From NCBI GenBank assembly GCA_965113315.1, contig OZ220363.1: 64,000 nucleotides of DNA; one strand, 5' to 3'. The first letter of the stretch is position 1; every line of letters begins with the position of its first letter. The notes under the pieces were generated by a model. It did no database searches. It worked only from the letters and a program-made list of their open reading frames with translations, and was not told the origin of the DNA. Source of the stretch: Podarcis vaucheri. Lineage: Eukaryota. Below, one piece after another: positions 184 through 62,886 of the stretch. The position numbers and the translations under genes were made by a program.

Positions 184-3100
184 AGGGCTATTTCCAAAGA
201 TTTCTACTCCTTTTGGCCAAGACGATGTCAGCAAGATGTCTACGCCTTTGAACTTAGAGGCAGACAGCAGGGAGGTTTTGAGATCAGTCACATCCTTGGT
301 GCTGAAGCAGTGGGCTGGCGTTGGTTCCCCCCCTGTGGACTCAGTCCCACTGAGGTAGGCAATCTGCAGCCCAGAGGCTCCGCTGAAGACCCCTTTACGT
401 CCTACATGCACAGCACAGAAGACAACGGTCAGGATGGAACCCTCTGACACACCAGCAACGTGCCTGAAGACTGAACACAATTAATTCTACAGGGAGAACC
501 AGAGAGATCCTAGTTGGGTGTATATGCTGGAATTCTGATTTGTTCAAGAGACAGGGAAGGAGCCTCTCTGCCTTGTGCTGGAAAGAACTTTTCCCTGGCC
601 AGTAAAAATCCCCAGTCTTTTCCCAGCCCCTGGTAGAGCCTGGCAGATGCCTGCTGTCAGGGGTTCAGGAGCAGAGGCGAGGGCAAGGGAGGAAACAGAG
701 AGCGAGGGGGAGGAGGCAGAAGAAAGGATGAGTGATGACGACGACCCGAGATCTCCGAGTCTTTCCAGTGAATCAGAAGATTCACAGAAAGGAGCACCAG
801 TGGCCAGGGCAAGGGGGGAGCCTAGGGGGACACCCCAGGAAGATAGAGCCAGAGGGGACTCAGAGGGGAGCAGTTGGAGATCGGGACCAGCGTCACCAAC
901 AGAGAGCAGGGGAGAGGAAGGGGGCCAGGGATCAAGCGCTGGCAGCTCACAACAGGAGGGAGGGCACGAGTCAGGAGTGGCCACACCTCCATCGGGGAGC
1001 GAAGAAACGGTCAGGCGGAGAGTGGGAGGTTGGGCGCGCGCGCCAAGTTCAAATGCACAGGAAGGTGGCGCAGTAAGCAGCCCAGAAAGGGAGCCAGGTC
1101 CTAAAGCCCGGCGCAAGGAGACAGGAGGGTCCGGGGGGTCAGCGTCGGAGGAGTCCCGGAGGGAGGAGACCCCGGGGGGCAGAGGGACCCAGAGGAGAAC
1201 AGTCAGGCGGAAAAGGTGGAGCAGGGCTAGGATATTAAGTTGGTGCGCAAGGGGCGGAGACTCAGACGGAGCTTCGCCGATTTAAGCATAAGACGTAGGG
1301 TTGCACGCAGCAGCTCGAGAATGGAGACTGTAACTCAATAAAGACTTTTATTTAACGATCGCTGGCTAGCGTGATCCTCTGTGAGCTAGGATCTGGAAGT
1401 AACCCTGACAGTAAGCTCCGTCTCTTCAAATTGTGGGCATCCACGGCCTCGCGGAGAGGAGAGAAAGCGGGTGCCTACAAGAGAGCTCACGAACGGCAGA
1501 CAATATGACGGCCGAACAGCAAATAACGGAACTCAGAGAAGCAGTTTCACGACTGAATGCCGAGGCGGTGGCGTCCAGGAAGAGAGAGGAGGAAGCAGCT
1601 GCCGCCTACAGGGATCTCCAGGTCAGGTTGGACGTGCTTACGAAGCAAGGGCAACAGACACCCAAATCAGAGGGGATTGGGTTGGGGAGACGCACAGGCG
1701 GTCTGGTCTCGCACTTTGATGGGAATTTGCAACAGTACCCCAACTTTAGAGCAGACGTAATGTGTGCACTGCAACTACTGCACAAAGACTTTAGAGATGA
1801 ACAAGAGAAGGTGGGGTTCATCATGTCCCATTTGCATGGAGACGCAAAAGCATGGCTGCGCAATTTGTGGAGAGATAAGGATCCTGCGCTCCAAAATGCG
1901 GACGCCTTTATTAAAGCGATGGATGGCTGTTTTTTATCAAGCATTGACGTGGATCTTGCCCGAAAGGAGGTGCATGGACTAAGGCAAGGGAGGGCCAGCG
2001 TAAGGCAGTATCATGCCCGCTTTTTCGCTTTGGTCAGTGCCCTGGAATGGGACAGAGATTCGGCTCCTGTCAGAGACCTTTTTTGGGAGGGCTTGCACAA
2101 CTCGGTTAAAGATGAGATTGCGAGGGGGGAGAGACCCCGGACCACGCAGGAGATCGTTCAGAGGGCGCTGGCGGTGGGGGTGCGGCTGGAAGAACGTCCG
2201 TGGAGCAGGGACGAAGGGCGCAGCGGGCGCGAACCACCCAGGGGCTCCTCCTTCCTTCCCAGAGAAGCAGCGCGTGCGCAATCCACGCCTCCAACAGGGG
2301 GAGGGGTGGAACCGATGGAGGTTGGGAGTGCAAGGGCTCAGTCAGCAGCCAGAGCCCTAGCACCGGCAGCAGTGAAAGCGAAGCCTCCTAGAGGGAACAG
2401 GAAGTGTTATATCTGCGAGGATCCAGGGCATATGGCGAAAGAGTGTCCCCGGAGGCTCCACAAGCACACTGCAGCCTCAGCAATGGTGACTGCAGCACCG
2501 CAGCACGGAGAACCACAGCAGGGAAACGACGATGTCTGGCTGGAGGAAGAGGCACTGGGGCCCAGCCAGACGTGTCAGTGAAGCAGTCCCCAGAGATTTT
2601 ACCGCCCATGGACCCCCTTCCGCCCAAGCCAGTAGTGAGGCTCACCGCATCGCTCCAGCTACCCAATGGAATCACCATGGACGTGCCAATCACCGTCGAC
2701 TCGGGAAGCAATGCAGACTTCATAGGGCAGGACTTTGTCGACTGGCACGCTATACAGTTGCTGCCTGCCACGCTGCCCCTGCAGGTTGTCACGGTGGATG
2801 GCAGGGAGCTGTTAGGGGGGCAAGTGGTGAAGCAGACGCCACCTATGGTGCTGCGGCTTGGAAATCACAGGGAAATCATCAGCTTCAACGTCACTCAACT
2901 CTCGGACACGCCTATTGTATTGGGCATGAGTTGGCTGGACAAGCACAGCCCGGCGCTGGCTTGGTACCAGAGGCAGCTGACCTTCGGCTCTTCCTTTTGT
3001 GCTGAACACTGCATCATGCCCCGGCAGGAAGGGGAGCAAGAGGAGTCACAGCTGCTGCTAGGCACGCTACAAGCGATTCCCCACAAGTACGCAGAATTTT

Positions 3101-6100
3101 TGGAGGTTTTCTGCGAGAAGGAGGCAGACAAGCTACCCCCCCACAGACCATATGACTGCAAAATTGACCTGCTGCCGGGGGCGCCGCTGCCCAAAGGGAA
3201 GCTGTATTCCATGTCTGAGGACGAACTGCAGGAACTCAAAGAGTTCATAGATCATAATTTGGAGCGCGGTTTCATCCGAGAGTCCCAGGCAGCGGGGGGC
3301 AGTCCTGTATTCTTTGTGAAGAAGCGAGACACGCCCCAAAAAAGACTCGTAGTGGACTACCGCATTTTGAACAGTGTGACCAAGCCATCGGACTTCCCCA
3401 TGCCCCGAATCGACGACCTCCTCGCAAAAGTACGCAAAGGCAGCGTGTTCACCAAGTTGGACCTGCGAGGGGCGTACAACCTCATTCGCATGCGGGAAGG
3501 AGATGAGTGGAAGACAGCCATGTTCACGCCCCTGGGCACCTACGAATATAGGGTTATGCCTTTTGGATTGCAAAATGGCTCCCACGTTTTTCAAGCTTTC
3601 ATGCATCACGTGTTGGCGGGGCTCCTCTACAAAACGTGCGTCTGTTTCTTGGATGACATCCTGATCTTTTCGGAATCGCAGCAGGAGCATGACAGACACG
3701 TGAGGGAAGTGCTGAGCAGGCTACAGCAACATAGGCTTTACGCCAAGCTGGAGAAGTGCCAATTCGACGTGACGGAGGTGGATTTCCTGGGCTACAAGTT
3801 GTCTGACAAGGGGCTCGCCATGGACAGCGCCAAGGTTCGAGCGGTGTTGGATTGGAAAAGCCCACGCAACCGGAAGGAGGTCCAACGGTTTGTCGGCTTC
3901 GCGAACTTCTATCGCAAGTTCATCAAAGGCTTCGCTATGCAGACAGCGGCCATCACGGACACGCTCAGTTCCAAGAAAAAGAAGTTCATCTGGACAGCAC
4001 AGGCGGAGCAGTCCTTTCAGGCACTCAAGCGTCTTTTCGCGTCGGAGGAACAGCTGCTTCATGTCGACCCCAGCAGGCCGATGAGAGTTGAAACAGACGC
4101 CTCGGACAGGGCCGTCGGAGCAGTCCTGCTGCAGAAGGACCCGCAGGGGGTTTGGAGGCCCAGAGCGTTTTACTCCAGGAAGCTCAGCAAGTCCGAACAG
4201 AACTACACCATCTGGGACAGGGAGTTGCTGGCTATTCATGCAGCGTTCAAAGCATGGAGGCACTTCCTGATTGGAGCCAAGCACACGGTGCAGGTCTGCA
4301 CGGACCACAAGAATCTGGAGCACTGGCGCACGGCACAGTTCCTGAACCAGAGGCAGATACGTTGGGCTGAGTTCTTTGCGAACTTCGATTTCCGAATAGA
4401 GTATGTCCCGGGGGACACCAACATCATGGCGGACGCGCTCTCCCGTAAGCCACAGTATCTGGAGGACGCCACGCCAGCGGCCGCCATGCACATCTTCGCA
4501 CCAACAGTGTGGGCGTGCGCTGCGGCGACAGTGGACCTGGAGGCGGTGCGACGAGCGTTGCAGAATGACTCCTTCACGCAAGCAAAGATGGCAGAGATGC
4601 AAAGGGGCACGGCAGCAACCGACGGGTTCCAGCTGAGAGATGGATTGCTCATCCGCAAAGGGGCCATCTACGTGCCGGGAGACGAACTTCGCGCCAAGGT
4701 ACTGCATCAGCTGCACGACGCGCCCACTGCCGGGCACTTTGGCAAGGAGAAGACGGTGGAATTAGTCGCCAGGGATTTCTGGTGGCCCGGAATGAGAGGG
4801 GAGGTCGCGGACTACGTGGCGAGGTGCGACACCTGCCAGAGGGCCAAACCAGTGCACAGACCGCCGGCCGGACTGTTGGAACCGCTGCAAACTCCGGTCG
4901 AGCCATGGGAGAGAGTCGCCCTGGACTTCGTCACGGATCTGCCCAGCTCGAGGGGCAAGACGGCCGTGCTGGTGGTGGTGGACTTGTTCTCCAAGATGGC
5001 ACATTTCATCCCGTGTGCGAAGGTGGCCACGGCGGAACAAACCGCCAAACTGCTCATAGACCACGTGTTCAAGGTTCACGGGCTGCCACGGTCTATTCTG
5101 TCCGACCGCGGGCGGCAGTTCATCTCGAATTTCTGGCAGAAGCTGATGGGCTTCCTAAACGTCAAGATCAACCTGGCGTCGGCGAGACACCCGCAGACCA
5201 ACGGGCAAGCGGAGCGGGTCAATGCCATCATGCAGCAGTACCTGAGATGCTATGCGAATCAACAGCCGGCGACGTGGGTGGATTACCTGCCGCTCGCCGA
5301 GTTCGCCTACAACAACACGAAGCACGTGTCCACGGGGGTCACGCCGTTCTTCGCCAACAACGGGAGGCACCCCAGAACCTTCCCGTGACTGGAAAGAATG
5401 GGGGAGGGGGAGCCGCAGACAGCAGATGCGTTCGCGTCGGAGTTGCAGGAGGTCCACGATCAGCTGCGGCGGCACCTGGAGCTGGCCAAACACGCATACA
5501 AGGTGCAGGCAGACAAACACAGAAGGGTTGGCGAAGAGATCCATGTGGGAGACTGGGTCTGGTTAGCAGCCCACGCAGTGCCGGCCAGGTCGTTGGCCAA
5601 GAAGAAACTAGGGCATAAGCAACTGGGGCCCTACCAAGTCGAAGAGCAGGTCAACCCGGTGGCTTTCAGGCTGGCGCTTCCGGAGGGTTCCAGAATGCAT
5701 CCGGTGTTCCACAGATCGGTGCTCACTCCCTACAAGGCACCGCACAGGTTTCAGGAACCCGGAACGGCGCCGAGTCCGCTCCGAGAGGGAACCAGGCAAC
5801 GGGGAGTGGCACAGGAGGTGCGCCTCAACGAAGTCACGGAGATTTTGGACTCCAGATGGGGGGAAGAGGGGGTAGAATACCTTCTCGCTAAGGAGGGCAC
5901 CCTGGCCAGTGCCAACAGCTGGGTGCCGGGCTACGCTTTAGATGAACCTCTGCTCAAGGAAGAGTTTCATGCCCTCTTCCCCCATAGGCCAATGCCAGCG
6001 GACTTTTTCGACGACTGGCTTTTCACGCCCACGCTTTCAACCAGCACGTTCCGGGGGTTCGACTCGGATGAGGAACCGACACGAGACGCCCGTTCCCCGG

Positions 6101-9100
6101 AGGGGTCACCCTTGGGATCTGCTTCAGAACCCTCGTATTGGTGGGATGATCGACCAGAGGAGCAGTGGCGCAGAAAGTGGCTGGAGGGTCCAGGACGAGC
6201 AACGCCTCCAGAAGGAAGCGAGGGAGAGATGGACATGGACGTTTTCGGGGACGACCAGGGTTTCGAGCACGGCGGCACAGAGATGGAAGCAGAGGTGACC
6301 GTCGTCGACGAGAGCAGGGAGGAAGAATCGGAAGACTTCGGATGGAGGCCCGCCACGGGAAGCGAACTGTACCCGACATTCGTCCCCTTGACACTGCAGC
6401 ACCCAGTTCCCGCACCGGAAGGAGGGGAGGGGGGAAGAGGGGGCTTCGAGGGGGGGATGGATGTCAGGGGTTCAGGAGCAGAGGCGAGGGCAAGGGAGGA
6501 AACAGAGAGCGAGGGGGAGGAGGCAAAAGAAAGGATGAGTGATGACGACGACCCGAGATCTCCGAGTCTTTCCAGTGAATCAGAAGATTCACAAAAAGGA
6601 GCACCAGTGGCCAGGGCAAGGGGGGAGACTAGGGGGACACCCCAGGAAGATAGAGCCAGAGGGGACTCAGAGGGGAGCAGTTGGAGATCGGGACCAGCGT
6701 CACCGCCAGAGAGTAGGAAAGAGGAAGAGCGCCAGGGATCAAGCGCTGGCAGCTCGCAACAGGAGGGAGGGCACGAGTCAGGAGTGGCCACACCTTCATC
6801 GGGGAGCGAAGTGACGGTTAGACGGAAAGTGGAAGGTTGGGCGCGCGCGCCAAGTTCAAATGCACAGGAAGGTGGCGCAGTAGGCAGCCCGGAAAGGGAG
6901 CCAGGTCCTAAAGCCCGGCGCAAGGAGACAGGAGAGTCAGGAGGGTCAGCGTCAGAAGAATCCCGGAAGGAAGAGACCCAGGGGGGCAGAGGGACCCAGA
7001 GGAGAACTGTCAGGCGGAAAAGGTGGAGCAGGGCTAGGATATTAAGTTGGTGCGCAAGGGGCGGAGACTCAGACGGAGCTTCGCCGATTTAAGCATAAGA
7101 CGTAGGGTTGCACGCAGCAGCTCGAGAATGGAGACTGTAACTCAATAAAGACTTTAACGATCGCTGGCTAGCGTGATCCTCTGTGAGCTAGGATCTGGAA
7201 GTAACCCTGACACCTGCATTATGACCCATTCAATTCATGGGTCAGGTAGCTTGGCATGGAGTGGGGTGGGGGCTGAGTGAACAGGGGGAGAAACCTTGGG
7301 GAGCCCCACACCATCACCTTCTTGGGAGCATTGAGAGAGGCCAGAGGAGCACCATCCCTCTCCTCCAAACAAGAAGGCTGAAGATCAAAAATCTTTGTTC
7401 TCCACCAAAGAAGGGGCAGGTGGCAGCCGTGCTCCCAAGCCCAGACCCCAGCAAGGAAGGACCCAAGTGAGAAATCTCATTTGGCACAGTAACTTCCCAT
7501 TTGGAAAAAGAAACAATTTCTGGTGGGGATCAGATAAAATCCACACCCTGCTAGTTTGAAGGAAATACAAAATATGGTTCCCACAGAGCCCTAAATTGGG
7601 GCCTCAAACCATGCCTGAGTCCCAAGAGCAGTCAGCTCCTCCTCCCCTCGTCAGCTTTTAGGTGCAAGCCTGAAACCTTTCTATTTGCCGGGGCTTTGGT
7701 GGTTCTTCACCTCTATTGTGGTGCTCATCTTTTAGTGGGCATGGGGAGGGATCGTCCTTTTTATTGGATTGTTGGACGAACAGTTTTAGGATTCTGTATG
7801 GTACATCATTTTAAATTTGGCTTTTAACTGATTTATCTCTCTGTATCTCTCTGTGGTCTAAACCGCAGAGCCTAGAGCTTGCCAATCAGAAGGTCGGCAG
7901 TTCGAATCCCCGTGACAGGGTGAGCTCCCGTTGTTCGGTCCCAGCTCCTGCTCCCCTAGCAGTTTGAAAGCACGTCAAGTGCAAGTAGATAAATAGGTAC
8001 TGCTCTGGCAGGAAGGTAAACGGTGTTTCCATGTGCTGCTCTGGTTTGCCAGAAGTGGCTTAGCCACATGACCCTGAAGCTGTCTGCGGACAAACGCCGG
8101 CTCCCTCGGCCTATAGAGCGAGATGAGCGTGGAACCCCAGAGTCATCCGCGACTGGACCTAACGGTCAAGGGTAACTTTACCTTTATTTTTTTAAGAAGC
8201 TACTCTCAGACATTTTCCTCTTTCCTTTTAATTAAATGTAGTAAACAATAAGCATAAAGTTACCCAGGTAAGTGATGTTCTCCGCTAGTTCGCATCCGCT
8301 GGCATCTGGAAAACATTGTGCTGTTTCACTGTTGTTGGCACCCAAGACGTATGTCTGTATAGGAGCTGAGGGAGACAAAGCCACCATGGCCCAAATGAGA
8401 TGAACTTTGCAGAGCTGTTATTTCTCAGTGGTGGCACCTGCCCTGTGGAACGCCCTCCCATCAGATGTCAAAGAAATAAGCAACCATCTGACGTTTAGAA
8501 GACATCTGAAGGCAGCCCTGCTTAGGGAAGTTTTTAATGACTGATGTTTTAATGTATTTTTAATCTTTTGTTAGAAGCTGCCCAGAGTGGCTGGGGAATG
8601 TTGGCTTTTTGCAGTATGGTAACGCTACAGAGAGCTTGCTGGGGAGACCATGCATTAAAAAGGGACTCAAAAATAACTTAAAGAAGGTTTTAATAAGAAA
8701 AACAAAAACTCCATTTACACTAAATACATCAACAAACCAGACCCAACCACCAACCCATCCCCCAGGGTAATGGGAGAGCTAGGTGCTGCTCCTTATATAC
8801 TATACCCAATTGCTGACACAGCCTAATCAACACAACTCAGCAGCACCTGCTATGTTTCACTGCTGTAAAGCTGGGTCTCGTTATTGTGCTCTGGCCCCTT
8901 AAAGACATACACGTGGAGTGGAACAATGATGAACCTTTACATTTAAAGAAACCATTCAACAGGGAAATGCAGCCAGATGGATGGGGTATAAATTAATTAA
9001 TTATTATTATTATTTCTTTCTCCACAGACAATTCATTTCAGAGAAAGTGCTGGCTTTTGAAAAAGATATGACTGGGCACTGTGGTGTAGGTTAGAAAGAG

Positions 9101-9953
9101 AGTGAGCTTCCTACGTAGAAAGGGGTCCTTCACAGGGAGAACGATGCAGATGTGTGACCCCACAGTGAAAGTCTGAAGGGCTGCAGCCCAGACACAGATG
9201 GAAAACAGCCTGAGGTGAGGGAGAGGGGCTTGGAGTCAGGGTTTGAAACGCCCATTGTTCTGGGCGCATTTTGTGAAAGGCAATTTCATTAGCACGAGCA
9301 GCTTCTGAGCTCTGGGTGCAGGAGTGTGCCTGCGATTTCAGATTAAAACTACAGAGTGGAAGGATAGGAGGACCCTTTTCTGGCCCCACTTCCAGCCACC
9401 CTCTGAAGCCTGGAGAAGGGACCCTCATAAGAATCTTAGGGGGGCGGGCAGGGGAAGCATGGCGTTGTTTTTGTTCATTCATTTTCAGCTTTGCATCAGC
9501 CCCCCGTTCTCCTGTCTCCTGCAGCCGCCTCGCCCTACCTTTCTTGGCTCCTGTCCGGTACGCCTCCCATTCTGGGTCGTGGGCCGAGCCAAAGAAGTTC
9601 CCCGCGCACAGGAGGAGCTGCAAGAGAAGACCGGGGGAGACGGTCAGGAGGAGGCGGCCCCGGGGGAGACGCGGCGGAGGCGGCGAGGGGAAGGGGCGCC
9701 CTTACGTCGAAGGCGCCGCTCTTGCTCTGCGCCGCCTGGACGCGGCTGTACAGGGAGCCCAGGCGACCCTCCACGTCCCCGCAGACCAGCCTGCAGAGAG
9801 GGGGAGAGAGAGAGAGAGAGAGAGGAGGCGCGTCAGGCGGGCGGAGGGAGGCGGCCTGGGCCGGGAGCCCCGAGGAAGAGGAGGGGGGGAGGCCGGCGGG
9901 GAGGGGGGGGGCCCGCCCGGGACTCACACTCTCAGGGCGCCTCCGGCCGCCAT
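184..9953 (-). CDS. CWF19L1: CWF19-like protein 1, coding exons 1-5 (gene continues off the left edge)
   Basis: Minus-strand GT-AG exons 9928-9953, 9706-9790, 9539-9617, 8264-8365 and 184-401 splice in frame. They give [19 protein letters not shown]...[14 protein letters not shown]...[12 protein letters not shown]...[29 protein letters not shown]...[14 protein letters not shown], which matches the recalled metallophosphoesterase-like N-terminus of CWF19L1. Confidence 0.95.
655..1410 (+). repeat. Gypsy 5' LTR (756 bp); U3 about 655-1263, R starting near 1264
   Basis: TATA-like TATTAA at 1233-1238, Inr-like TCAG with +1 near 1264, and AATAAA at 1337-1342. About 96% identical to the 3' LTR by manual count. 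Confidence 0.93.
1505..2581 (+). CDS. gag: Gypsy Gag (capsid domain plus CCHC zinc knuckle)
   Basis: ATG at 1505, N-terminal coiled coil, capsid-like segment (FDG...[16 protein letters not shown]...[15 protein letters not shown]...FWEGL), EPMEVG motif, and the knuckle [14 protein letters not shown]. Confidence 0.92.
   Translation: MTAEQQITELREAVSRLNAEAVASRKREEEAAAAYRDLQVRLDVLTKQGQQTPKSEGIGLGRRTGGLVSHFDGNLQQYPNFRADVMCALQLLHKDFRDEQEKVGFIMSHLHGDAKAWLRNLWRDKDPALQNADAFIKAMDGCFLSSIDVDLARKEVHGLRQGRASVRQYHARFFALVSALEWDRDSAPVRDLFWEGLHNSVKDEIARGERPRTTQEIVQRALAVGVRLEERPWSRDEGRSGREPPRGSSFLPREAARAQSTPPTGGGVEPMEVGSARAQSAARALAPAAVKAKPPRGNRKCYICEDPGHMAKECPRRLHKHTAASAMVTAAPQHGEPQQGNDDVWLEEEALGPSQTCQ
2521..2580 (+). 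promoter_or_regulatory. -1 programmed ribosomal frameshift signal (G GGA AAC plus H-type pseudoknot)
   Basis: The heptamer at 2521-2527 is correctly phased to gag codons, and pol is in the -1 frame. Stem 1 is GTCTGGCTGG 2534-2543 with CCAGCCAGAC 2562-2571. Stem 2 is CACTG 2553-2557 with CAGTG 2576-2580. Confidence 0.8.
2527..7092 (+). CDS. pol: Gypsy Pol (PR-RT-RNase H-IN-chromodomain-long tail) with one in-frame TGA at 5386-5388
   Basis: Protease VDSGSNADF; [18 protein letters not shown] and FLDD; RNase H ETDASD and ELLA; [17 protein letters not shown] and [12 protein letters not shown]; GPY module. ORFs 2404-5388 and 5398-7092 are in the same frame. Confidence 0.93.
6462..7212 (+). repeat. 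Gypsy 3' LTR (751 bp)
   Basis: Direct repeat of 655-1410. It follows the PPT, ends CCCTGACA and is followed by the TSD. Confidence 0.95.
7853..8186 (+). mobile_element. Sauria SINE (Squam1-type)
   Basis: tRNA-like B box (CAGTTCGAATCC), typical body (GTGAGCTCCCGTTG...GCAAGTAGATAAATAGGTAC) and a CTTTACCTTT tail. Confidence 0.85.
8420..9015 (+). mobile_element. L2-type LINE 3' fragment, interrupted by a solo LTR
   Basis: Same 3' end as the other L2 copies in the window (TGGAACGCCCTCCCATCAGATGTC...CCAGATGGATGGGGTATAAAT plus an ATT tail). Confidence 0.75.
8599..8961 (-). mobile_element. Solo LTR (363 bp)
   Basis: TGTTG...CAACA termini with TSD GGGAA at 8594-8598 and 8962-8966. The minus strand has TATATAA near 8797 followed by ATTAAA near 8690. 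Confidence 0.8.
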
Positions 9954-10084
9954 CGCTCTCCCGCGCGCTTCCTCTTCCGGCGGAAGGGCCCTTCCGGCGG
10001 GGGCGCCCAAAGTCCTCCGGGGCGGGAGGCGCTTCTGCGCAGGCGCCTCCCCAGAGCGAGCGAGAGCAGGAAGGAGGCAGCGCC
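9954..10084. promoter_or_regulatory. Bidirectional CpG-island promoter for CWF19L1 and ERLIN1
   Basis: There are 131 nt between the divergent ATGs. ETS/GABP-type sites CTTCCGG/CGGAAG lie at 9974-9986 and 9991-9997, inside a CpG island of about 9500-10750. Confidence 0.75.
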
Positions 10085-13000
10085 ATGTCCTCCTCCGGCG
10101 GCGGCCTGGCCGGGGAGGGGGAGTCCCGTGGCGGGCCCGGCCCGGCTCCTCCGCGCTCCCTCCCCCCCGCCCGCCCGCCCCGCTGGGCCGGGGCCAGTCT
10201 GGCCGGGGCGGCGGCGGCGGCGCTGCTCCTCCTCCTCCTGCTGGGCGCCTCCGTCCACAAGGTGCAGGAGGGCCACCTGGCCGTCTATTACAGGTGAGGG
10301 GAGACCCCAGCAGGGACCCCCCCCCCGACCCGACCCGGACCCCCCTCCGGCCTCTCCGCTCAGCCCCCCCTCTCTCTCTCTCCCCCCCAGGGGCGGGGCG
10401 CTGCTGGCCACCCTCAGCGGCCCGGGCTTCCACCTCATGCTGCCCTTCGTCACCACGCCCAGAGCCGTCCAGGTCGGTATCTCCCCGGGGAAGCCGGGCC
10501 GGGCGGGGAAAGGGGCGGGCTCTGCTTCTGGGCTTGGCCGGGACCCCCTCCGCCCCCGCCCCCCCCCCGGGCTGCTCAGTCTCGCTTCTCTTTCAGACCA
10601 CGCTGCAAACGGACGAGGTGAAGAACGTGCCTTGCGGGACCAGGTGGGTGGCCGGGGGGCGGGCGGGCTGCGCCGGGAGGAGCGCCTTGGGCTGGGTGCG
10701 GGGGGGCCAGGGCGGCAGTTTCTGGGCTGGAAGCACCCAGCCCCCCGCCAGGGGCTCTGCTGCTTGGCTGCTCAGTGAGATGTGTGGCGCAGGATGCTGC
10801 CAGGGCTCCAAGGCAGTTTGCTTAATGGAAGCCGCAAGCAGCCCACAGGCTCCCCTTGGGCAAGCTGCTCTCTTGTGGGGCTGCTGGCCTTTCTCTTGCG
10901 GGGGGGGGGGGCTAGGCAGGTGTATGGGAGGCGCCCCAGCTGGCTCTTGGCAGCTGCTGGACGCAGCCAGGCTACCTGGTTCTCTTTCAGTTGTAGCAGT
11001 GGGAAGGCAAAGCAGGGAGCTGGGGCTGCCTCTAGAGTCCTGTGTTGCTTCCTCTTCATTTTCTCTTGCATGTTGCTCAGTAGAGGTGTAGCTTAACTTT
11101 CAGTCTGGGCCAATAGCAGTGCAATAACCGTGGGACCTGCGTCTGTTCCAAGTCACTTGGCCGGCGGCTTCATTGCCACCCGCTCCGTGACACAGGCTGT
11201 GAGGAACCGCAAAGGCTGTTGTCGTCATTGGCTCTGGCGGGAGTTTGTGTTGTGGAGGGAAGTGCTGCTGGTGCAGCAGCCCAGCTGGGCGGTCTGTGCC
11301 ACTTGCTCCTGGGCCCATTGTTGAGGGCCAAAGGTTATCTGGGGTCTCCTGGTTCTAACCCTGAGATGAGAGCAGGAAGCTGCCTCAGACCAGCCCCCTG
11401 CCCACCCCCGGCTCTCTTGCACTTAACCTCTGTGCACGCTGTCTCTGCCTCTCTCCCTCTTGGTGCAGAGAAAGGCTGCAGGAAACTGAGTTTGCCCCAA
11501 GGGGTGGCAATAGCTCATCTTCCTCCTTTTTTCCTTGCAGTGGAGGCGTCATGATCTACATTGATCGGATAGAGGTGGTGAACATGTTGGCTCCACATGC
11601 AGGTATGGCTCCTTTCCCTGTGCCTGAAAGCGAATCCTGGAGGAAGGAGAGAAGCAGAGCCCCTCGGAGACAGGGGCGGGTGGGCTCACCAGCAGCAAGA
11701 GCGGAGGGAGGGGGAGGGTTGGTGGGCAGGGAAAGGGGCTTGAGGAGGGAAGTTGGAGGAGCTCATGTTGCTGAAAAGGAGGGTTTCCTGTTGACTGTTC
11801 CTGACTTTTGATGTTGGCTCAGTAAGGATTGCTAGGTTGGTGGAAAACAGCCAGGGGTGGGTCCGGATTCTGATGCTCTTCAGTGTTGTTATTGGTGACT
11901 GGCATGAGCGAGACTTACACCCTCTGAAGGAACTGATTTTGGTCCAGCCGAAAAGGCTAAATTGCTTCTGAATCTGTCAGAGTCAAAGGCGTGTTTGTCT
12001 GTGTGGGGCAGGCAGGCAGACTCTCCTTGGGCACCTGCAGGGGCGGCAGTGGGCAGAGCTGTTCTGGTGGGGGGAGTGGCTGGGGCGGCAGGAGGAGGGG
12101 GAAGAGAAGGGAAGTGGGGTCCGGAAGGGCACCAGCTGGAAAAGGAGCGCAGGACAGGGCTTCTTGGGGTTGGCAGAGGGTGAGCTCTGAGAAGAAGCTT
12201 CGCAGCTGGGCTTCTAGGAAAAAGCAGAGACTGACTCCCGCTGTGGCCTGGCTCTCACCACAGTCCCTGCGAGGCTTTGGAGGATGTTGGGAACTGCTGC
12301 TCACTGGACTTGTAAAGGTGGACTTCTTTATAGAAGCCTTCAGTTGCAGTTGACATAGGAAGAAAAATATTATCAGTCTCCCGTAACATCACATTGTAAT
12401 GTTTTCATTAGAGCTGCTCACTTTGGAACTGCTGAGTAAAAATTAGGACGTTTGCTCATTAGGCCACTGCCATCTTTTTGGGGCGGCAGCCTTAAGCACA
12501 CTTTCTTGCAAGTAAATCACACTAAAACCAGTTGGACTTCCTTCTGAGTAAATATAGCTAGGATCCGGCTTCCGATGTGTGGACAATCTTTTATACTTAC
12601 AAGTCATATTCAGTTGTTAGATAGAAATTGTGATTAATTCAGAGAAATAGCTCCTATGTGTTCAAGAAACTCTGAGCACCAGCATCTTGAATTTGCCTGA
12701 CAGGTGCGAGAGCACCAATGGCATCAGAGTGCCTTTCCGGTGACACTTCTGCTGTTCCTTTTCTTAGTATACGATGTTGTGAAGAACTACACTGCAGATT
12801 ATGACAAGACCCTCATTTTCAACAAAGTCCATCATGAGCTCAACCAGTTCTGCAGTGCCCACACCCTCCAGGAGGTCTACATTGAGCTCTTTGGTAAGCA
12901 GGTGACGGGGGGGGGGGGGCGGCTAGCTTTTGCTGGTACCATTTCCCCAAAGCACATCCAGTGAATTGGAAATGGAGCAAGGATGTTTACACAGTTCCAT

Positions 13001-29000: not shown

Positions 29001-32000
29001 CTGGGGTCCCTGAGCTCCAGGGGCCTTTGGGGGCTCTGAGCTGCTGCAGCCCCCGGGGGGGAGGAACCCCAGAGGCCCCCCCCCAGCCCTCAGCCGGAGG
29101 GATGGGACACAGGCTGTCGCTGCGTCCTCTTCGCCTCCCCCAGCTCCGTCCCTGATGAGGAACCCCAGGCTGCTACCTGGTGACGATGGAGTAGCTCGCT
29201 GCCACGGGGAGGATCCTGGTGACCAGCTCCTTGACGGACATATCCAGGTTGGGATCCACCAAGAAAGTGCGGCTCTCTCTGCCCACCAGTGGCTGCGCAG
29301 TGATGTACCGGCCATCCACCCCAATCAGGACGTAGAGCAAGTCCTCCACCACAGCAGATTCCTGGGCTGCCAGGGGCAAAGTCCCTGGCAGAGGAAAGCG
29401 GCACGTCATGCACCGGCGCCACTCAAACAAATGCATCTGGGGAACCCGCCTGAGGGCCAAAAGGGCAGCTGGCCATTCTTAAAAAGAGCAGGGTCTCCCA
29501 CCACCGGGAGAGGAGAGGGCATTTGACAGGTGGCTGCCTTGAAATGCTCTTTGACTTTATCCCTATTGATAATTTGTGCACCTGGACACGGTTTTGTGTG
29601 CTTATTTTTTTACGTCAAGCTGTTTGACACTGTTTTTACTGTGCCTGCTGGGCTCACAAATAAAACTCTACTCACATTCGTGTGTTTTCAATCTATGGTA
29701 AGCTGGCAGTTGTTGGCAGCTATGGGAGAGGAGAGGGCTTTTGGGCTTGGATCCTGCCAACGGATTTCCCACTGGGGGCATCTGGGGGGCCCCTGTGAGG
29801 ACAGGATGCTGGAATGGATAGGCCCCTTTGGCCTGATCCAGCCGCCCCACTCTTCTTGTGTTCTGGACCTTCCGCGCTGCACTGCCCAGACCCACGTTGG
29901 CAGAGCATCACCAGCTGCCCATTCAGGGTCCCAGAGAAGCATCCAGCAGGCAGGGGAGGCAGAAACAGCCCCAAGCTGGGAGACCCTCTGCTCCTCCTCT
30001 CGTGCAAGACTCACCGATAGGCACCGTGGTGTCCAGGCTCAGGCTGGAGCTCGTGAGGAAGTCCCCGATGAGGGCCGGCCTCTCATACACCCAGGCGGGA
30101 AAGGACGGGATGGGCTGCCCAGAGTTCTTCCTGTTCTGCTTGTCCCTGAGCGACTTCCGCACCAGCTCAAGAGACTGCCAAGGAAGAGAGCGAGTGACAG
30201 GCCAGCCATGGCAGCAGGGGGTGTGGCAGCTGGGCTCCCACTCACTGCCAGTTTCTGCCCCCTTTGCTCAGGGGGCAAAAGAGGCTGGCACAGTATTTGC
30301 ACCCAGGGAGGCCTCTCCGGACCCACCCCTAGTCCCCTTGGCAAACCGGAGAGCAGCCCACCTGCCCGGAGCGTTGGACAAGGCAGAACTTCCTCTGGTG
30401 TAGGCACTACAGGGAGCCCAGCTAAGGGCCTCCGGCAGGTGCCCACTGAGGTCACTGGCTTCCCATCCCAGGCTTGCTGTGTGTGAGAGAGAGATCCCAA
30501 AGGCTTTGGCTGCAGCAGACCCTTCCCTTCCCAAATAACAAATCAGGGGACCCAAGAGAAGAGAGGGACCTGTGGGGCGCTGGAGCTGGTTGTGACGGTG
30601 CCCAGCTGCTTCCGTAGCTCCTCCAGCTCCTGGACGGTCATTTTGGCTGTTGTTGAGGGGATGGAGAAAGTGACGCTGCTGCTGGCTCCGCCACTGTTGG
30701 CCGCTGCATTGGCTGCTAGCTCTGCCCTTTCCTTGGCATTTTGCTGCAAGTACTGGAGGGTCTGCAAAAGCCCCACAAAAAGCAGAACTCAGGAAGGACA
30801 CCAAAGAGCCCAAGAGCCACGGCCCACGAGGAGAGTGGATCTCCCAGCGCCTCCCCAGTCTTGATATAGGACAGCCGAGGTGGGCAACCGGCAGCCCTCA
30901 GGGGCCCGAATTCAAATTCAGGCCTCAGGCCAGAGCAACCTGTCTGTCTCTGGTCAGTCTGCCGGGTGGGAAGGGAGAGGGGGGCGGGGGGGGGCTCTGG
31001 ACCCTCCGACCACGGGCTGCAGGTCCCGCCCACCCTCTGCTTCCTCTCTTGATGGGGAACTGGTGAGCCAGCGCTGGGCCGGGCCGAGGAATGGCTGGCT
31101 GGGGCTGCTCCTGGGGGGGGGGGGACCCCGCCGAGGTCTGCCCCGTCTCTCTGTCCCCGCCCGCGCCGCCCGCCTCTCCTCACCTCCTTGTCCTCGGTCA
31201 GCTTGGCCAGCAGCTGCACCAGCGAGTCCAGGTGCCGCGTGTTCTTCGACTTCAGCTCGTCGTACTTGGTCAGAAAGTCTTCCGGCGTCCGAGAAAACTC
31301 CGCGATCTTCACCTGCGGGGAGACGGGGCGGGGCGGGGGGTCAGCGCCCGGCGGGAGGAGTCCCGGGGGGGGGCCACCCAGGGAGGGAGGGGTCCCGGGG
31401 GGGGTCCTTCCCTCCCTCTCCCTCCCTCCCTCCCCCCCGGGGCGGGGGGGGGGTCAGCGCCCGGCGGGAGGAGTCCCGGGGGGGGCCACCCAGGGAGGGA
31501 GGGAGGGGTCCCGGGGGGGTCCTTCCCTCTCTCCCTCCCCCTCCCTCCCTCCCCCCCGGGGCGGGGGGGGGGGTCAGCGCCCGGCGGGAGGAGTCCCGGG
31601 GGGGGCCACCCAGGGAGGGAGGGAGGGGTCCCGGGGGGGGTCCTTCCCTCCCTCTCCCTCCCTCCCTCCCCCCCGGGGCGGGGGGGGGGTCAGCGCCCGG
31701 CGGGAGGAGTCCCGGGGAGGGCCACCCAGGGAGGGAGGGAGGGGTCCCGGGGGGGTCCTTCCCTCTCTCCCTCCCCCTCCCTCCCTCCCCCCCGGGGCGG
31801 GGGGGGGGTCAGCGCCCGGCGGGAGGAGTCCCGGGGGGGGCCACCCAGGGAGGGAGGGAGGGGTCCCGGGGGGGGTCCTTCCCTCCCTCTCCCTCCCTCC
31901 CTCCCCCCCGGGGCGGGGGGGGGTCAGCGCCCGGCGGGAGGAGTCCCGGGGGGGGCCACCCAGGGAGGGAGGGAGGGGTCCCGGGGGGGTCCTTCCCTCT

Positions 32001-32428
32001 CTCCCTCCCCCTCCCTCCCTCCCCCCCGGGGCGGGGGGGGGTCAGCGCCCGGCGGGAGGAGTCCCGGGGGGGGCCACCCAGGGAGGGAGGGAGGGGTCCC
32101 GGGGGGGTCCTTCCCTCCCTCTCCCTCCCTCCCTCCCCCCCGGGGCGGGGGGGGGGTCAGCGCCCGGCGGGAGGAGTCCCGGGGAGGGCCACCCAGGGAG
32201 GGAGGGAGGGGGTCCGGCGGGGGTCCTTCCCTCCCTCCCCCCCCCCGGGGCCTCGCTCGCCTTGGCTCCGAGGGCGGCGGCGGAGGTGGCGGCGGCGAGG
32301 AAGGGCCCGCCCTGGCTCCTCTGCAGCAGCTCCACGTAGCCCTCGGCGCCGCCTTCCCCGCAGGAGCCCCTCGCGCGGAGGAGCCGGAGCAGCTCGTTCA
32401 CGTCGTGGTGGAGCCGGAACTCGCTCAT
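20098..32428 (-). CDS. TUBGCP2: Gamma-tubulin complex component 2, 17 coding exons, about 908 aa
   Basis: Exons 32261-32428, 31184-31312, 30570-30761, 30015-30174, 29177-29384, 28639-28838, 27064-27253, 26463-26608, 25693-25873, 25073-25253, 22768-22940, 22371-22499, 21732-21852, 21102-21245, 20870-20998, 20452-20615 and 20098-20209 sum to 2727 nt in frame. The protein reads MSEFRLHHDVNELL...RSIKHYFLMDQGDF...RLDFNGFY. An alternative upstream ATG is at 32437. The first donor is GC. Confidence 0.95.
23135..24910 (-). mobile_element. L2-clade LINE, 5'-truncated, with an open RT domain
   Basis: ORF 23535-24986 contains LLDLSAAFDTIDH, GVPQGSVLSP and YADDTQLY, and there is a (TAA)n tail near 23135-23170. 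Intronic in TUBGCP2. Confidence 0.92.
26010..26190 (-). mobile_element. CR1 LINE RT fragment
   Basis: Peptide IEGILIKFAEDTKLGGVAN (FADDTKL motif). Confidence 0.75.
26769..27048 (+). mobile_element. CR1 LINE 3' end
   Basis: Peptide RTRSNGAKLQERRFHLNIRKNFLTVRAV, then PSLEVF, then a (TCTATGAT)n tail. Confidence 0.85.
31330..32250. repeat. GC-rich minisatellite, 8 units of about 113-120 bp, filling TUBGCP2 intron 1
   Basis: The anchor TCAGCGCCCGGCGGGAGGAGTCCC recurs at about 31341, 31454, 31574, 31690, 31809, 31924, 32042 and 32157. Confidence 0.95.
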
Positions 32429-59157: not shown

Positions 59158-62100
59158 TGTTGGAGTCGGAACTTAACAGGTTAAGTTTGTCCCATGATGC
59201 CTCAACATTCTGACGTCAGCTTTAGAAGCTGGGAGGAGTTTTCTGCTCTCTCTCGGTTGTTGAGAGGAAAGGACGAAGTTTTGCCATGGCTGCAAGGAGT
59301 CCTGGAGATTTCTGAGAAATGTCGCAATAAAGAACTGTAAATAGACACGAAAGAAGGCTCTGTGTGTCTGTGGGAAGCAACGTGACAGCTTTGACCGCTG
59401 TGTTCACTCTGCTAGCCGTGACCAGAGGAAGCAAGAACGCGCAGCTGAAGGAAGCGTGCCGGGCTGTTGTTAAAAGCTAAGTTGGGTCGTAAACCCATTA
59501 GCCGGTCACGGTTGATTAAAAACATTCACAGGTTATGGACATAAATCACCGCTTGTAAAGCTGTCGCTGGGGCTGCTGGAATGCTTTGAAGTTCTGCGTT
59601 CGGAAGCAGTGGCGCTGACGGAAGCGGGGCCTGTGTCTGAGGCAAGCAAGCAACCTGAAAGACGCTGTGCTGAATGCTGCAGTGCTAAAAGCAGCAGGGA
59701 ATCGTTTCTCCACGGACAGGAGCCAGAAGAGCTTGTGAGTAAAGCTTGTGGGCACCTGGGAAGAACGGGAGACTATGGACAGAAAGCCTGTTGAAAAAAA
59801 AGGCTGCTTAGAGCTGAGAGCTGTGCCTAGCGTTTGAAGGCAAGCTGATGTCGATGCCTGAGACAGCTTTGAGTCCTGCCTGAAGTGGTGAGGCAGTCGA
59901 TCTCAGCTGGGAGCTGACCTGCTAGACCGGGAGCTGGAGAGCGGCTGTTTGTTTACGTGAGTACGCTGGGCCCCGGGGGAAGATGGCAGATGGCCAGGAG
60001 GTGATTCAAGCTCCGTTTGAACAGCTTGAGGAACTCACCGCCCAAGCGTGGAATACATGGGCAAGATGGGTGAGAGCGTGGTTTATAGCCACGGAGGTTT
60101 GGGACATTTCCCAGAGGGAACCAGTGCAACTGGTGGACAGAGATGCAGGAAAGCTGCAGTCTGCTTCTCTGGAGGAGAAAATGCAGAGAGAGAAAGCTGA
60201 CAGAGCTGAGATCTGCATGTTGCGAGCTAGCGTACACGCTAAGCTGTTGCCGTGTTTGGAAGGCATTGAGTCAGCCTGTGAAGCCTGGAAGGTGCTGAGG
60301 AGTTTGTGTCAAAGCTCAGCAGGTGGCCAGGAGCAGGAGGATGCCGAGGGCTCAGCCAGAAGCCCTGAATCTACAGCCTCACGGAGTGCTGTTGGAAGTG
60401 TTGGGGGGGCAGAGAAGCCCAAAAGCCAGTTTGGAAAAGTTTCCACTGCGTATGCTGAGAGAAAGTGCTGTTTCAGCGGGGGCGGAGCTGATGTCCCGGA
60501 AGCTGTGCTAGCTGAGAGCTCACCCCAGTACTTTTCCACTCGGAGGTGCTACGTGTGTAATTCTCCAGAACATCTGCGAAGAAATTGCCCCCACCGGAGC
60601 AAGGAGGCAAGGCAGGATGTTGTCAAGGTCAACTCACATGGGAACCAGTCGGGTTACCATGGAAACCAGCCTGGGAAAGGAGCCAGGCGTGCAACTGAGT
60701 CTGGTGGACGTGACGGAGACCAGGGGAAGATTTATCAAATAACTGCTAGTATGGCATTGTTTGAGAACAGCTGTGAGAAAGGCTCAATGTTTTGTTTTGT
60801 GATAGACTCAGCAGCTAATTGCAACTTGATTCCAGAGACCCCTGCTGTCGAGATGTGGAATTGCAGAGCAGTTACGCTCGGAAAAACAGTTCAGTTTGCA
60901 AATGGACAGAGAAATAATGTCACTAACGTTGTAAATGTGTTCTTTTCTGTTTTGCAGGAAACGTTGGAGTGTTGTACTGTCCCAGGGATACAGCACTGTC
61001 TTTTGTCTGTGCCTTATTTGTTAAAGAAGGGGTTTAAGGTTTGCTTCGAGGATAATGCCTGCACAATCTCCAAAGGAGGGAGGATACTTGCCAAGGTTAA
61101 AAAGGGGCAGAATGATCTCTTCATTCTTAAGACGCCTCTGGAGGGTGAGGGGAAAGTTGGAAAAGCACAAGCCTTACGTGCTACAGTTCCCACACATGTG
61201 TCATGTGCTCATGTTTGGCATGCAAGGACAGCTCATAGTTCTTTAGAAGAACTACAGACGCTACCTGAGGTCGCCAAAGGTTGTCACATTGTCGAATGTG
61301 GATGTGTCATAGATTGTGAAGCATGTAGACAAGCAAAGGTGAAAGGGTGCAGTTACCCAAAGGTGGAGAGGGTACACACCAAACCCTTTGAAATGGTTCA
61401 CATAGATCTGTTGGGTCCCATAAAGGAACCAAGTCTGGGAGGGTCAAGGTTTCTGCTGACGATGCAGGATAACTTTACGCAGAACACCTGGAATCACGGC
61501 CTCAAATCTAAGGAAGAGGCAGCACAACTGATCAAAAGTTGGGTAGAGGAAGTGGAACTAAGGTTTTCCACCAAAGTGCAAGCTGTCACAAGTGACAGAG
61601 GAGCTGAGTTTACAGGATCTGCTTTGCAGAGGTTCTTTCACAAGAAAGGGATACATCACACAGTGACTTCACCCAATCAGAGGGGGTGGGCTGAGCTAAG
61701 ATGTGAAGCTCTGGTTAAGACTGCAAAGGTGTTGCTGACAGATTCTGGGTTGCCACCAAAGTTTTGGCTGGAGGCAATCAAGTATGTAAGCTTCACCTGG
61801 AATCGCACCTACAATTCAATGGTAGGTGACACACCATTTGGTTTGTTGCATGGCAGGAAACCCCAGATTCATTTTTTGCGCAAGTTTGGGTCTCAATCAT
61901 CTGTGCCGGTGCCTGAGGCTTTGCAAGGGCCAGATGGATCCAAGTTCCGGAAAATGATCTTCTGTGGGTATGAGCCAGCAGCACGTGCATGGAGGTTTGC
62001 TTTCCCTTCAGGTGATCAGAGTAAGTTGCTGATCAGCAAACACGCTGAGTTCTATGAACAGGATGTAAAGTCAAAGACTCCTGTTGGGCGGGATGTTCTC

Positions 62101-62886
62101 TCAGAATGTCTTTTTGATTCAGAGCAGGAAGATGCTGGGGAGGAAGAAGAAGAGGCTGAGTCTGCTGATGACGACCAGGTCACAGACCAAGGTCTGGAGC
62201 AGGGTGGGGCATCTCCACAAGTTGTTAAAAGGGAGGTCAAGAGTGAGCCTAGTCCTCCGGTGAGTGTAAGGGAGAAGATTCGAAGTCGTTATAAGTCAGA
62301 GGGGGAATCCCGGGATGCAGAGGACACACCTGCTGGTGATGTTGTGTCAAGGGAAACATCTGAGTTTGTGCCCAGACGGTCTAGTCGCACAACGAAGGGT
62401 GTTCCACCTGAAAGATATCAGGCCACTGGTGCGTGGGTTAGTTTCGCACAGTGTGAACCTGAGAGTTATGTGGTAAGTCCACAGGTTTTGTCAGAATGTG
62501 ACGCAAGAGGGGGTGTTGGAGTCGGAACTTAACAGGTTAAGTTTGTCCCATGATGCCTCAACATTCTGACGTCAGCTTTAGAAGCTGGGAGGAGTTTTCT
62601 GCTCTCTCTCGGTTGTTGAGAGGAAAGGACGAAGTTTTGCCATGGCTGCAAGGAGTCCTGGAGATTTCTGAGAAATGTCGCAATAAAGAACTGTAAATAG
62701 ACACGAAAGAAGGCTCTGTGTGTCTGTGGGAAGCAACGTGACAGCTTTGACCGCTGTGTTCACTCTGCTAGCCGTGACCAGAGGAAGCAAGAACGCGCAG
62801 CTGAAGGAAGCGTGCCGGGCTGTTGTTAAAAGCTAAGTTGGGTCGTAAACCCATTAGCCGGTCACGGTTGATTAAAAACATTCACA
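59158..62886 (+). mobile_element. Non-autonomous Ty1/copia-type LTR element lacking RT/RNase H (3729 bp)
   Basis: The 373-bp LTRs at 59158-59530 and 62514-62886 (TGT...ACA) are identical by eye. TSD AAAAT at 59153-59157 and 62887-62891. PBS-like GGTTATGG at 59531. PPT AAGAGGGGG at 62505-62513. Confidence 0.95.
59983..62532 (+). CDS. Copia-type Gag-protease-integrase polyprotein, 849 aa, with no RT
   Basis: Knuckle CYVCNSPEHLRRNC; protease-like FVIDSAA and LLSV; IN zinc domain WHARTAH...CEAC; IN core VHIDLLGP, SDRGAEF, GWAE and PPKFWLEA; SH3-like IFCGYE; RRSSR...PPERY. The ORF ends shortly after EPESY. Confidence 0.92.
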   Translation: MADGQEVIQAPFEQLEELTAQAWNTWARWVRAWFIATEVWDISQREPVQLVDRDAGKLQSASLEEKMQREKADRAEICMLRASVHAKLLPCLEGIESACEAWKVLRSLCQSSAGGQEQEDAEGSARSPESTASRSAVGSVGGAEKPKSQFGKVSTAYAERKCCFSGGGADVPEAVLAESSPQYFSTRRCYVCNSPEHLRRNCPHRSKEARQDVVKVNSHGNQSGYHGNQPGKGARRATESGGRDGDQGKIYQITASMALFENSCEKGSMFCFVIDSAANCNLIPETPAVEMWNCRAVTLGKTVQFANGQRNNVTNVVNVFFSVLQETLECCTVPGIQHCLLSVPYLLKKGFKVCFEDNACTISKGGRILAKVKKGQNDLFILKTPLEGEGKVGKAQALRATVPTHVSCAHVWHARTAHSSLEELQTLPEVAKGCHIVECGCVIDCEACRQAKVKGCSYPKVERVHTKPFEMVHIDLLGPIKEPSLGGSRFLLTMQDNFTQNTWNHGLKSKEEAAQLIKSWVEEVELRFSTKVQAVTSDRGAEFTGSALQRFFHKKGIHHTVTSPNQRGWAELRCEALVKTAKVLLTDSGLPPKFWLEAIKYVSFTWNRTYNSMVGDTPFGLLHGRKPQIHFLRKFGSQSSVPVPEALQGPDGSKFRKMIFCGYEPAARAWRFAFPSGDQSKLLISKHAEFYEQDVKSKTPVGRDVLSECLFDSEQEDAGEEEEEAESADDDQVTDQGLEQGGASPQVVKREVKSEPSPPVSVREKIRSRYKSEGESRDAEDTPAGDVVSRETSEFVPRRSSRTTKGVPPERYQATGAWVSFAQCEPESYVVSPQVLSECDARGGVGVGT

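Follow-up and report, generated by a model that had tools for sequence, protein, structure and literature searches.

The 64,000-nucleotide stretch analysed here (the window; Podarcis vaucheri, assembly GCA_965113315.1, contig OZ220363.1) contains a complete Gypsy long terminal repeat (LTR) retrotransposon at positions 655-7212, flanked by a 5-bp target-site duplication (TSD). The element lies antisense within an intron of CWF19L1, consecutive exons of which flank it at 200-410 and 8260-8370 (minus strand). Beyond its chromodomain, the Pol reading frame continues through the polypurine tract (PPT) and all of U3 into R. This extension, or tail, is almost certainly a selected coding frame, and it carries, directly behind the chromodomain, a motif resembling the TND-interacting motifs (TIMs) of host proteins that bind LEDGF and HRP2. 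The features of the element are as follows.

650..654, + strand: TSD of 5 bp, with a second copy at 7213-7217
655..1410, + strand: 5' LTR, a patchwork of subfamily alleles with 95% identity to the 3' LTR
1413..1423, + strand: self-priming primer-binding site (PBS), complementary to 1264-1274 (putative R start), with compensatory changes in other lineages
1415..2581, + strand: gag frame with capsid and CCHC knuckle, overlapping pol, with a putative frameshift
2392..5388, + strand: pol frame with protease, reverse transcriptase (RT), RNase H and integrase, terminated by a TGA private to this copy
5548..5733, + strand: integrase SH3-like (Tf2-1) domain (PF24626, E 1.5e-15)
5830..5979, + strand: chromodomain without aromatic cage residues (PF00385, E 0.01, below the cut-off; predicted local distance difference test score, pLDDT, 80-86)
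6004..6075, + strand: TIM-like motif in which a predicted short helix ending in LF precedes an 8-residue S/T linker, FxGF and an acidic run; candidate LEDGF/HRP2 binder
6076..6428, + strand: acidic, predicted-disordered tail upstream of the PPT, with a conserved Trp-rich patch at 6136-6180 (omega 0.31 for the pre-LTR tail)
6429..6461, + strand: G-runs and PPT, read in frame; a hot spot for one-base losses in individual copies
6462-7212, + strand: 3' LTR
6462..7070, + strand: U3 of the 3' LTR, coding in the Pol frame and under purifying selection
6843..6862, + strand: 20-bp block invariant as DNA in 7 diverged copies, likely a promoter element within the coding frame
7000..7053, + strand: basic cluster and LLxW-type end motif, overlapping a TATA-like site about 30 nt upstream of the putative start
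7071..7092, + strand: putative R start (self-priming 11-mer) and Pol stop at 7090-7092
7144..7149, + strand: polyadenylation signal AATAAA

The PBS is complementary over 11 bp to an LTR 11-mer found at 1264 and 7071, and from the position of this 11-mer, R would begin at about 7071. Other lineages have different PBS/11-mer pairs in which complementarity is kept; in the two distant lineages described below, LTR pairs were found in 8 of 12 cases and the self-priming match in 4 of these 8. The available text of PMC6317226 gives self-priming as the mode of the Tf1/sushi group. The LTR family is large (1657 first-look candidates); among named sequences, the close relatives of the element are limited to UniRef Pol proteins with the label Podarcis muralis. 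In the gag/pol overlap, GGGAAAC near 2520 is presumably a slippery-like site.

The Pol frame is open through the PPT and U3

The original prediction held that the Pol frame stays open for 366 codons beyond the chromodomain, 209 of them inside the 3' LTR, up to a stop at 7090-7092, and that the same frame is open in the 5' LTR. The sequence bears this out: the extension runs from 5992 within a frame open over 5389-7092 (567 amino acids), its stop lies 19 nt into R as placed above, and the frame in the 5' LTR is open to 1285. The two LTRs differ, as predicted, by 30 substitutions, 15 synonymous and 15 non-synonymous, with no stop and with a single 5-bp indel that falls after the stop codon. The predicted excess of synonymous change over neutrality also held, since random re-placement of the same substitution types gave a mean of 8.7 synonymous changes (P 0.0098). 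Among 59 other LTRs, each of the two alleles is found at 27 of these 30 sites. The pair therefore compares subfamilies and not post-insertion decay, and it is informative because the differences that it samples were fixed between active subfamilies. The LTR pairs of three other elements with intact TSDs (L127/L159, L133/L165 and L138/L169) are patchworks as well, with differences of up to 5.7%; LTR divergence therefore overdates some insertions.

The window copy itself has an in-frame TGA at 5386-5388 that truncates Pol before the SH3-like domain, the chromodomain and the tail. Each of the 13 sister 3' ends carries a sense codon there. The stop is thus private to the window copy, whose Pol cannot include the tail.

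Two further, more distant lineages in the same genome (G000), with identities of about 66-75% in RT-RNase H and 52-63% in integrase, also read through the PPT and U3. Toward the end of their frames, about 30 nt upstream of the putative start, a basic cluster and an LLxW-type motif are again present, and their Pol stops at that start or 19 nt beyond.

The tail evolves as protein

Among the copies collected, 94 include the end of the chromodomain, and in 35 of these the frame reaches the terminal stop uninterrupted, with 200 or more open codons upstream. The copies used to estimate omega (dN/dS) were taken from the 35, with 7 for pairwise estimates (21 non-independent comparisons) and 10 for maximum likelihood (ML). 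The comparison of the U3 frame with the other frames, proposed with the original prediction, was made on frame-blind DNA alignments of the 7 copies. U3/R gave dN 0.25, dS 0.82 and omega 0.30, against 0.88-1.42 in four other frames; the pre-LTR tail gave 0.31, and the SH3-like domain plus chromodomain 0.10. By ML, omega was 0.336 over 196 codons (2dL, twice the log-likelihood difference, 134.5 against omega = 1; p 4e-31), and the four successive sub-windows of U3/R gave 0.28, 0.40, 0.37 and 0.28.

Selection at the codon level thus extends over all four quarters of U3/R. Of 64 invariant residues there, 47 are encoded by more than one codon, while the 20-bp block at 6843-6862 shows no synonymous change in the 7 diverged copies. 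Conserved residues with varied codons, together with a frozen block, indicate that U3 is constrained both as protein and as DNA. This supports the proposal that U3 serves twice, as a promoter in the 5' LTR and as protein code in the 3' LTR.

A control was drawn from 54 LTRs of 30 elements in which openness of U3 was not a selection criterion. Mutations private to one LTR look neutral, falling 19/16/17 across the three codon positions and including 4 stops and 7 frameshifts. Variants common to at least three elements fall 18/15/30 with zero stops, and shared indels occur only after the stop, with none in the coding part. One distant lineage gave a U3 omega of 0.59 (9 copies, 2dL 11.2) and shared variants at 18/18/34. 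Within-element LTR pairs gave a pN/pS of 0.41, a value driven by recombinant pairs and based on 14 of 40 pairs tried, with minus-strand rows skipped. Pairwise DNA indels were multiples of three in 75 of 169 cases in U3 and 7 of 33 after the stop, in noisy data from copies selected for being open.

Several points weigh against selection on the tail. The omega copies were chosen for open frames. In the 54 LTRs, the contrast in synonymous and non-synonymous change between private and shared variants is non-significant (p 0.18), and a singleton-versus-shared test on 59 window-like LTRs is non-discriminating (p 0.69). Losses of 1-2 bases in the G-runs occur at 4 of 14 sister junctions and at 5 of 9 in an older group.

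Frequent frameshifts in young copies had been named beforehand as a sign against coding; the youngest subfamily is in frame at 14 of 14 junctions. In the PPT G-runs (6429-6461), single-base losses recur in older copies, gains never occur, and 0 of 14 youngest-subfamily junctions are affected. These frameshifts, scattered on the tree, represent decay of copies and not a tail-less lineage. A spread of frameshifted lineages was considered and rejected: the commonest loss, seen in 10 copies, takes 8 changes, a number that shuffles also give, and its frequency is biased because the loci came from a frameshifted query.

It is highly improbable, and has been largely refuted, that purine-rich composition and promoter constraint keep the frame open by accident, or that an antisense frame at 5967-7088 is the one selected. 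U3 does contain 10% T, one 20-bp block is constrained at the DNA level, and the antisense frame is open in the window copy with an omega of 0.42. However, in the shuffling test suggested with the original prediction, dinucleotide shuffles kept the U3 frame open in 0.9% of 5000 trials and the whole tail in 0.06%, and the third-position bias is confined to inherited variants. As a selected gene the antisense frame was rejected: it has stops in 5 of the 7 diverged copies, and third-position transversions follow the degeneracy of the sense frame, so that its omega reads as a shadow of shared third positions. Neither the tail nor the antisense frame matches a Pfam family.

The U3-encoded part could instead be a generic disordered spacer with an import signal, its openness keeping the stop near the poly(A) site and so allowing a short 3' untranslated region and escape from decay. 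U3 measures about 215, 309 and 609 nt in the three lineages, and yet the frame spans it in each and stops at the putative start or 19 nt past it; the tail is also of low complexity. Openness alone, however, would not yield an omega of 0.3 with residue-level conservation, and a gag-pol frameshift would in any case have most ribosomes stop far upstream. We regard this explanation as quite unlikely.

A TIM-like motif follows a chromodomain without a cage

The chromodomain, weakly matched in the window, matches Pfam at E 6e-11 to 6e-13 in sister lineages, with HP1 among the matches. In a structure model it is folded, while 324 of 429 residues have pLDDT below 50, in line with the disorder that the original prediction proposed for the tail. 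Weak helices are predicted at model residues 66-72, 119-127 and 410-418, the first of which coincides with the TIM-like motif and has pLDDT below 50. Aligned with HP1, the cage positions, the first of which is where we take it to be, are all non-aromatic in 89 of 94 parsable copies. In the distant lineages only the middle cage Trp is kept (32 of 34). The set of three aromatic cage residues that marks a Group I chromodomain is absent from the lizard element. Ty3 offers a parallel, described in the part of bioRxiv 2021.07.27.453949 available as a vestigial chromodomain with new partners.

The most informative motif of the tail (6004-6075) lies upstream of the PPT and outside the LTR. It has the form F-x8-FxGF-acidic, in which a predicted short helix ending in LF is followed by eight residues, FxGF and an acidic run; the F, G and F of FxGF are invariant in 94 of 94 copies, whereas x varies. 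The accessible text of PMC9987994 defines a TIM as a helix, a linker of 8-16 acidic or phosphorylatable residues and an FxGF that is essential for binding LEDGF/HRP2, and the portion of bioRxiv 624023 at hand describes the same FxGF requirement for fly JIL-1. In solved human constructs, the spacing before FxGF is x8 in JPO2 M1 and POGZ, x10 in JPO2 M2 and x14 in MLL1.

A profile search of 1.84 billion proteins returned 16 matches, four of which are distant elements with a fully acidic motif. Across 40 distant loci, the motif with an acidic linker is present twice in 20 of 34 matches, once in 8 and not at all in 6; five of the six motif-less matches are shortened by stops. Shuffles gave P 0.001-0.005 for a single motif and P at most 5e-5 for paired motifs. 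When 1292 sequences were ranked with a profile of the element motif, human TIM constructs took 5 of the top 7 places.

The resemblance has its weaknesses. The linker in the window lineage is S/T-rich and has no Asp or Glu among its 8 residues, and the helix spacing there is unlike that of the human ligands, whereas the second distant lineage fits. Local profile E-values are weak (best 0.003 without and 0.16 with composition correction), a PDB sequence search with the motif profile recovered two weak unrelated matches and no TIM construct, and the pattern had already been spotted when the tests were made. A complex prediction of the integrase-binding domain of lizard LEDGF with the 40-residue motif scored 0.01, which counts neither way as no alignments were used and the method is unvalidated for peptides. 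Atlas searches returned no match at or above 0.9, and the tail has no sequence match to any family. Judged from sequence, binding of the FxGF motif to a TND reader seems probable for the two distant lineages and somewhat favoured for the window lineage.

A candidate tether on integrase

We propose that the tail is a disordered C-terminal extension of Pol whose FxGF motif would bind LEDGF or HRP2 and tether the integration complex to chromatin, a reading that we favour modestly. Genomic RNA with U3-R at its 3' end would be translated via a -1 frameshift into Gag-Pol, and the tail would probably be kept on integrase. In the window lineage, phosphorylation might render the S/T linker acidic, allowing FxGF to dock on the TND of LEDGF or HRP2. 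These readers of H3K36 methylation would then replace the histone reading lost by the chromodomain, and the basic end of the tail may aid nuclear import, as in Ty1.

If the protease released the tail, or a spliced RNA encoded it, it would act on its own as an accessory protein in the manner of Nef or Sag. In favour of this are the pyrimidine tract, AG and ATG at 5960-5994 and the length and basic end of the tail; against it, annotated relatives (P0002) have the frame joined to Pol without a break, and a tethering motif would be useless once cut off. A conserved splice acceptor before 5992 was rejected as a candidate, the AG being missing in 23 of 94 copies. We consider an accessory protein improbable.

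The location of the window copy within a CWF19L1 intron may be cited in support of tethering to LEDGF/HRP2. The insertion sites of young copies weigh against it: on four large contigs, with the best 40 matches of each list counted, the distance to a contig end is at most 1.2 Mb for 6 of 19 and 4 of 13 young insertions, where 0.3 and 0.2 would be expected, and TTAGGG-like arrays form 4 of 16 flanks. Gene-body tethering does not predict such clustering. Moreover, the FxGF motif lies outside U3 and so leaves the coding of U3 without an explanation.

The clustering of young insertions favours a targeting tail that, as with Ty5 or the plant CR motif, acts mainly through a heterochromatin or telomere factor, with U3-encoded motifs ([15 protein letters not shown] and the basic-LLxW end) directing integration. 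All three lineages share the basic-LLxW end, and the CR motif of plant elements is LTR-encoded and linked to centromere targeting in the available text of PMC3605345 and PMC6317226. On the other side, subtelomeres may be gene-rich, the insertion lists hold the best 40 matches, the tail has no relatives among known families, and the best-conserved feature across lineages is the FxGF motif. A heterochromatin or telomere factor as main partner is, in our judgement, unlikely. More broadly, and tentatively, this lizard chromovirus radiation may have exchanged histone reading by the chromodomain for FxGF TIM mimicry of the host's network for transcription elongation; this would hijack LEDGF/HRP2 and converge on the HIV tether through an interface unlike that of HIV, while the rest of the tail, written through the promoter, would add a second, possibly telomere-directed, signal.

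Genomic surroundings

Insertions in TTAGGG-like arrays were recorded at L026, L103, L105, L106, L108, L131 and L147. At L032, L036, L039 and L043, an LTR starts exactly 5 bp past the point where another one ends, as though it had inserted directly beside an older copy; some of these cases are probably duplicates of one event. One 41-Mb contig of the genome (C41) holds a large share of the older copies of all three lineages.

Elsewhere in the window, a GC-rich island at about 9500-13000 separates CWF19L1 from a Band 7/SPFH gene on the plus strand (12701-12961, a weak Pfam match), which we take to be ERLIN-like; the island is probably a promoter shared by the two genes. A GC-rich tandem array of 8 copies (period about 115-118) occupies 31324-32245. 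A direct repeat of at least 300 nt, with no difference between its two copies, is present at 59158-59457 and 62514-62813, 3356 nt apart, and possibly marks another young element.

Comparison with known systems

The element shares with Tf1/sushi-group chromoviruses (Sushi-ichi, vertebrate Ty3/Gypsy) its LTRs, TSD, Gypsy-order gag and pol, SH3-like domain and chromodomain at the integrase end, and self-priming PBS; it differs in the cage-less chromodomain and in a Pol that runs 366 codons through the PPT and U3 into R. Its placement there is by layout, chromodomain and self-priming PBS.

HIV nef and MMTV sag have coding sequences that overlap U3 and are separate genes expressed from spliced RNAs. 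The original prediction drew this likeness; the U3 overlap stands, while the separate-gene model is less convincing than an integrase targeting tail, given that the lizard frame continues directly from Pol. Its statement that such frames are not typical of chromoviruses does not hold: in the accessible text of PMC3605345, gag-pol open reading frames of plant CRM (Beetle, CRM2) and several Reina (Bingo) elements enter the 3' LTR, and there and in that of PMC6317226 the extension is thought to target integration. The layout itself is therefore not new. The lizard element differs from these in a frame spanning all of U3, in its animal host and in its TIM-resembling motif, and it is not a CRM member, as it keeps a chromodomain before the PPT where CRM has a CR motif in place of an ordinary one. 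In the literature searched we found no U3-spanning Pol tail in vertebrate chromoviruses and no FxGF TIM in a retrotransposon integrase, although subscription papers, Repbase reports or supplements could hold either. What is new is the F-x8-FxGF-acidic motif before the LTR, together with its tandem, fully acidic versions in two distant lineages.

With the TIMs of JPO2/CDCA7L, POGZ, MLL1/KMT2A, IWS1 and fly JIL-1, the candidate motif shares a linker of 8-10 residues, FxGF, an acidic flank and a disordered setting, together with a predicted helix ending in F, and its tandem copies in the distant lineages recall those of JPO2. It differs from them in lying in a retrotransposon integrase and in its S/T-rich linker in the window lineage.

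The proposed tether also resembles the lentiviral integrase-LEDGF tether and the systems of Ty1 and Ty5, in which integrase uses a host chromatin protein for site choice. HIV integrase binds LEDGF via its folded core and not through an FxGF peptide. Ty1 and Ty5 have other targeting partners; the part of PMC7459421 available describes short C-terminal targeting motifs in their integrases and a Ty1 C-terminus that also carries a bipartite nuclear localisation signal.

Whether or not the lizard motif binds, the same DNA acts as promoter, priming site and protein code, and young and old subfamilies allow each constraint to be measured. If it does bind, it gives a short, testable answer to how elements with a cage-less chromodomain choose their sites, with thousands of natural insertions in one genome to draw on. 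Integration tethering through LEDGF/HRP2 would then have arisen outside lentiviruses, in a retrotransposon, by way of the host's own peptide grammar.

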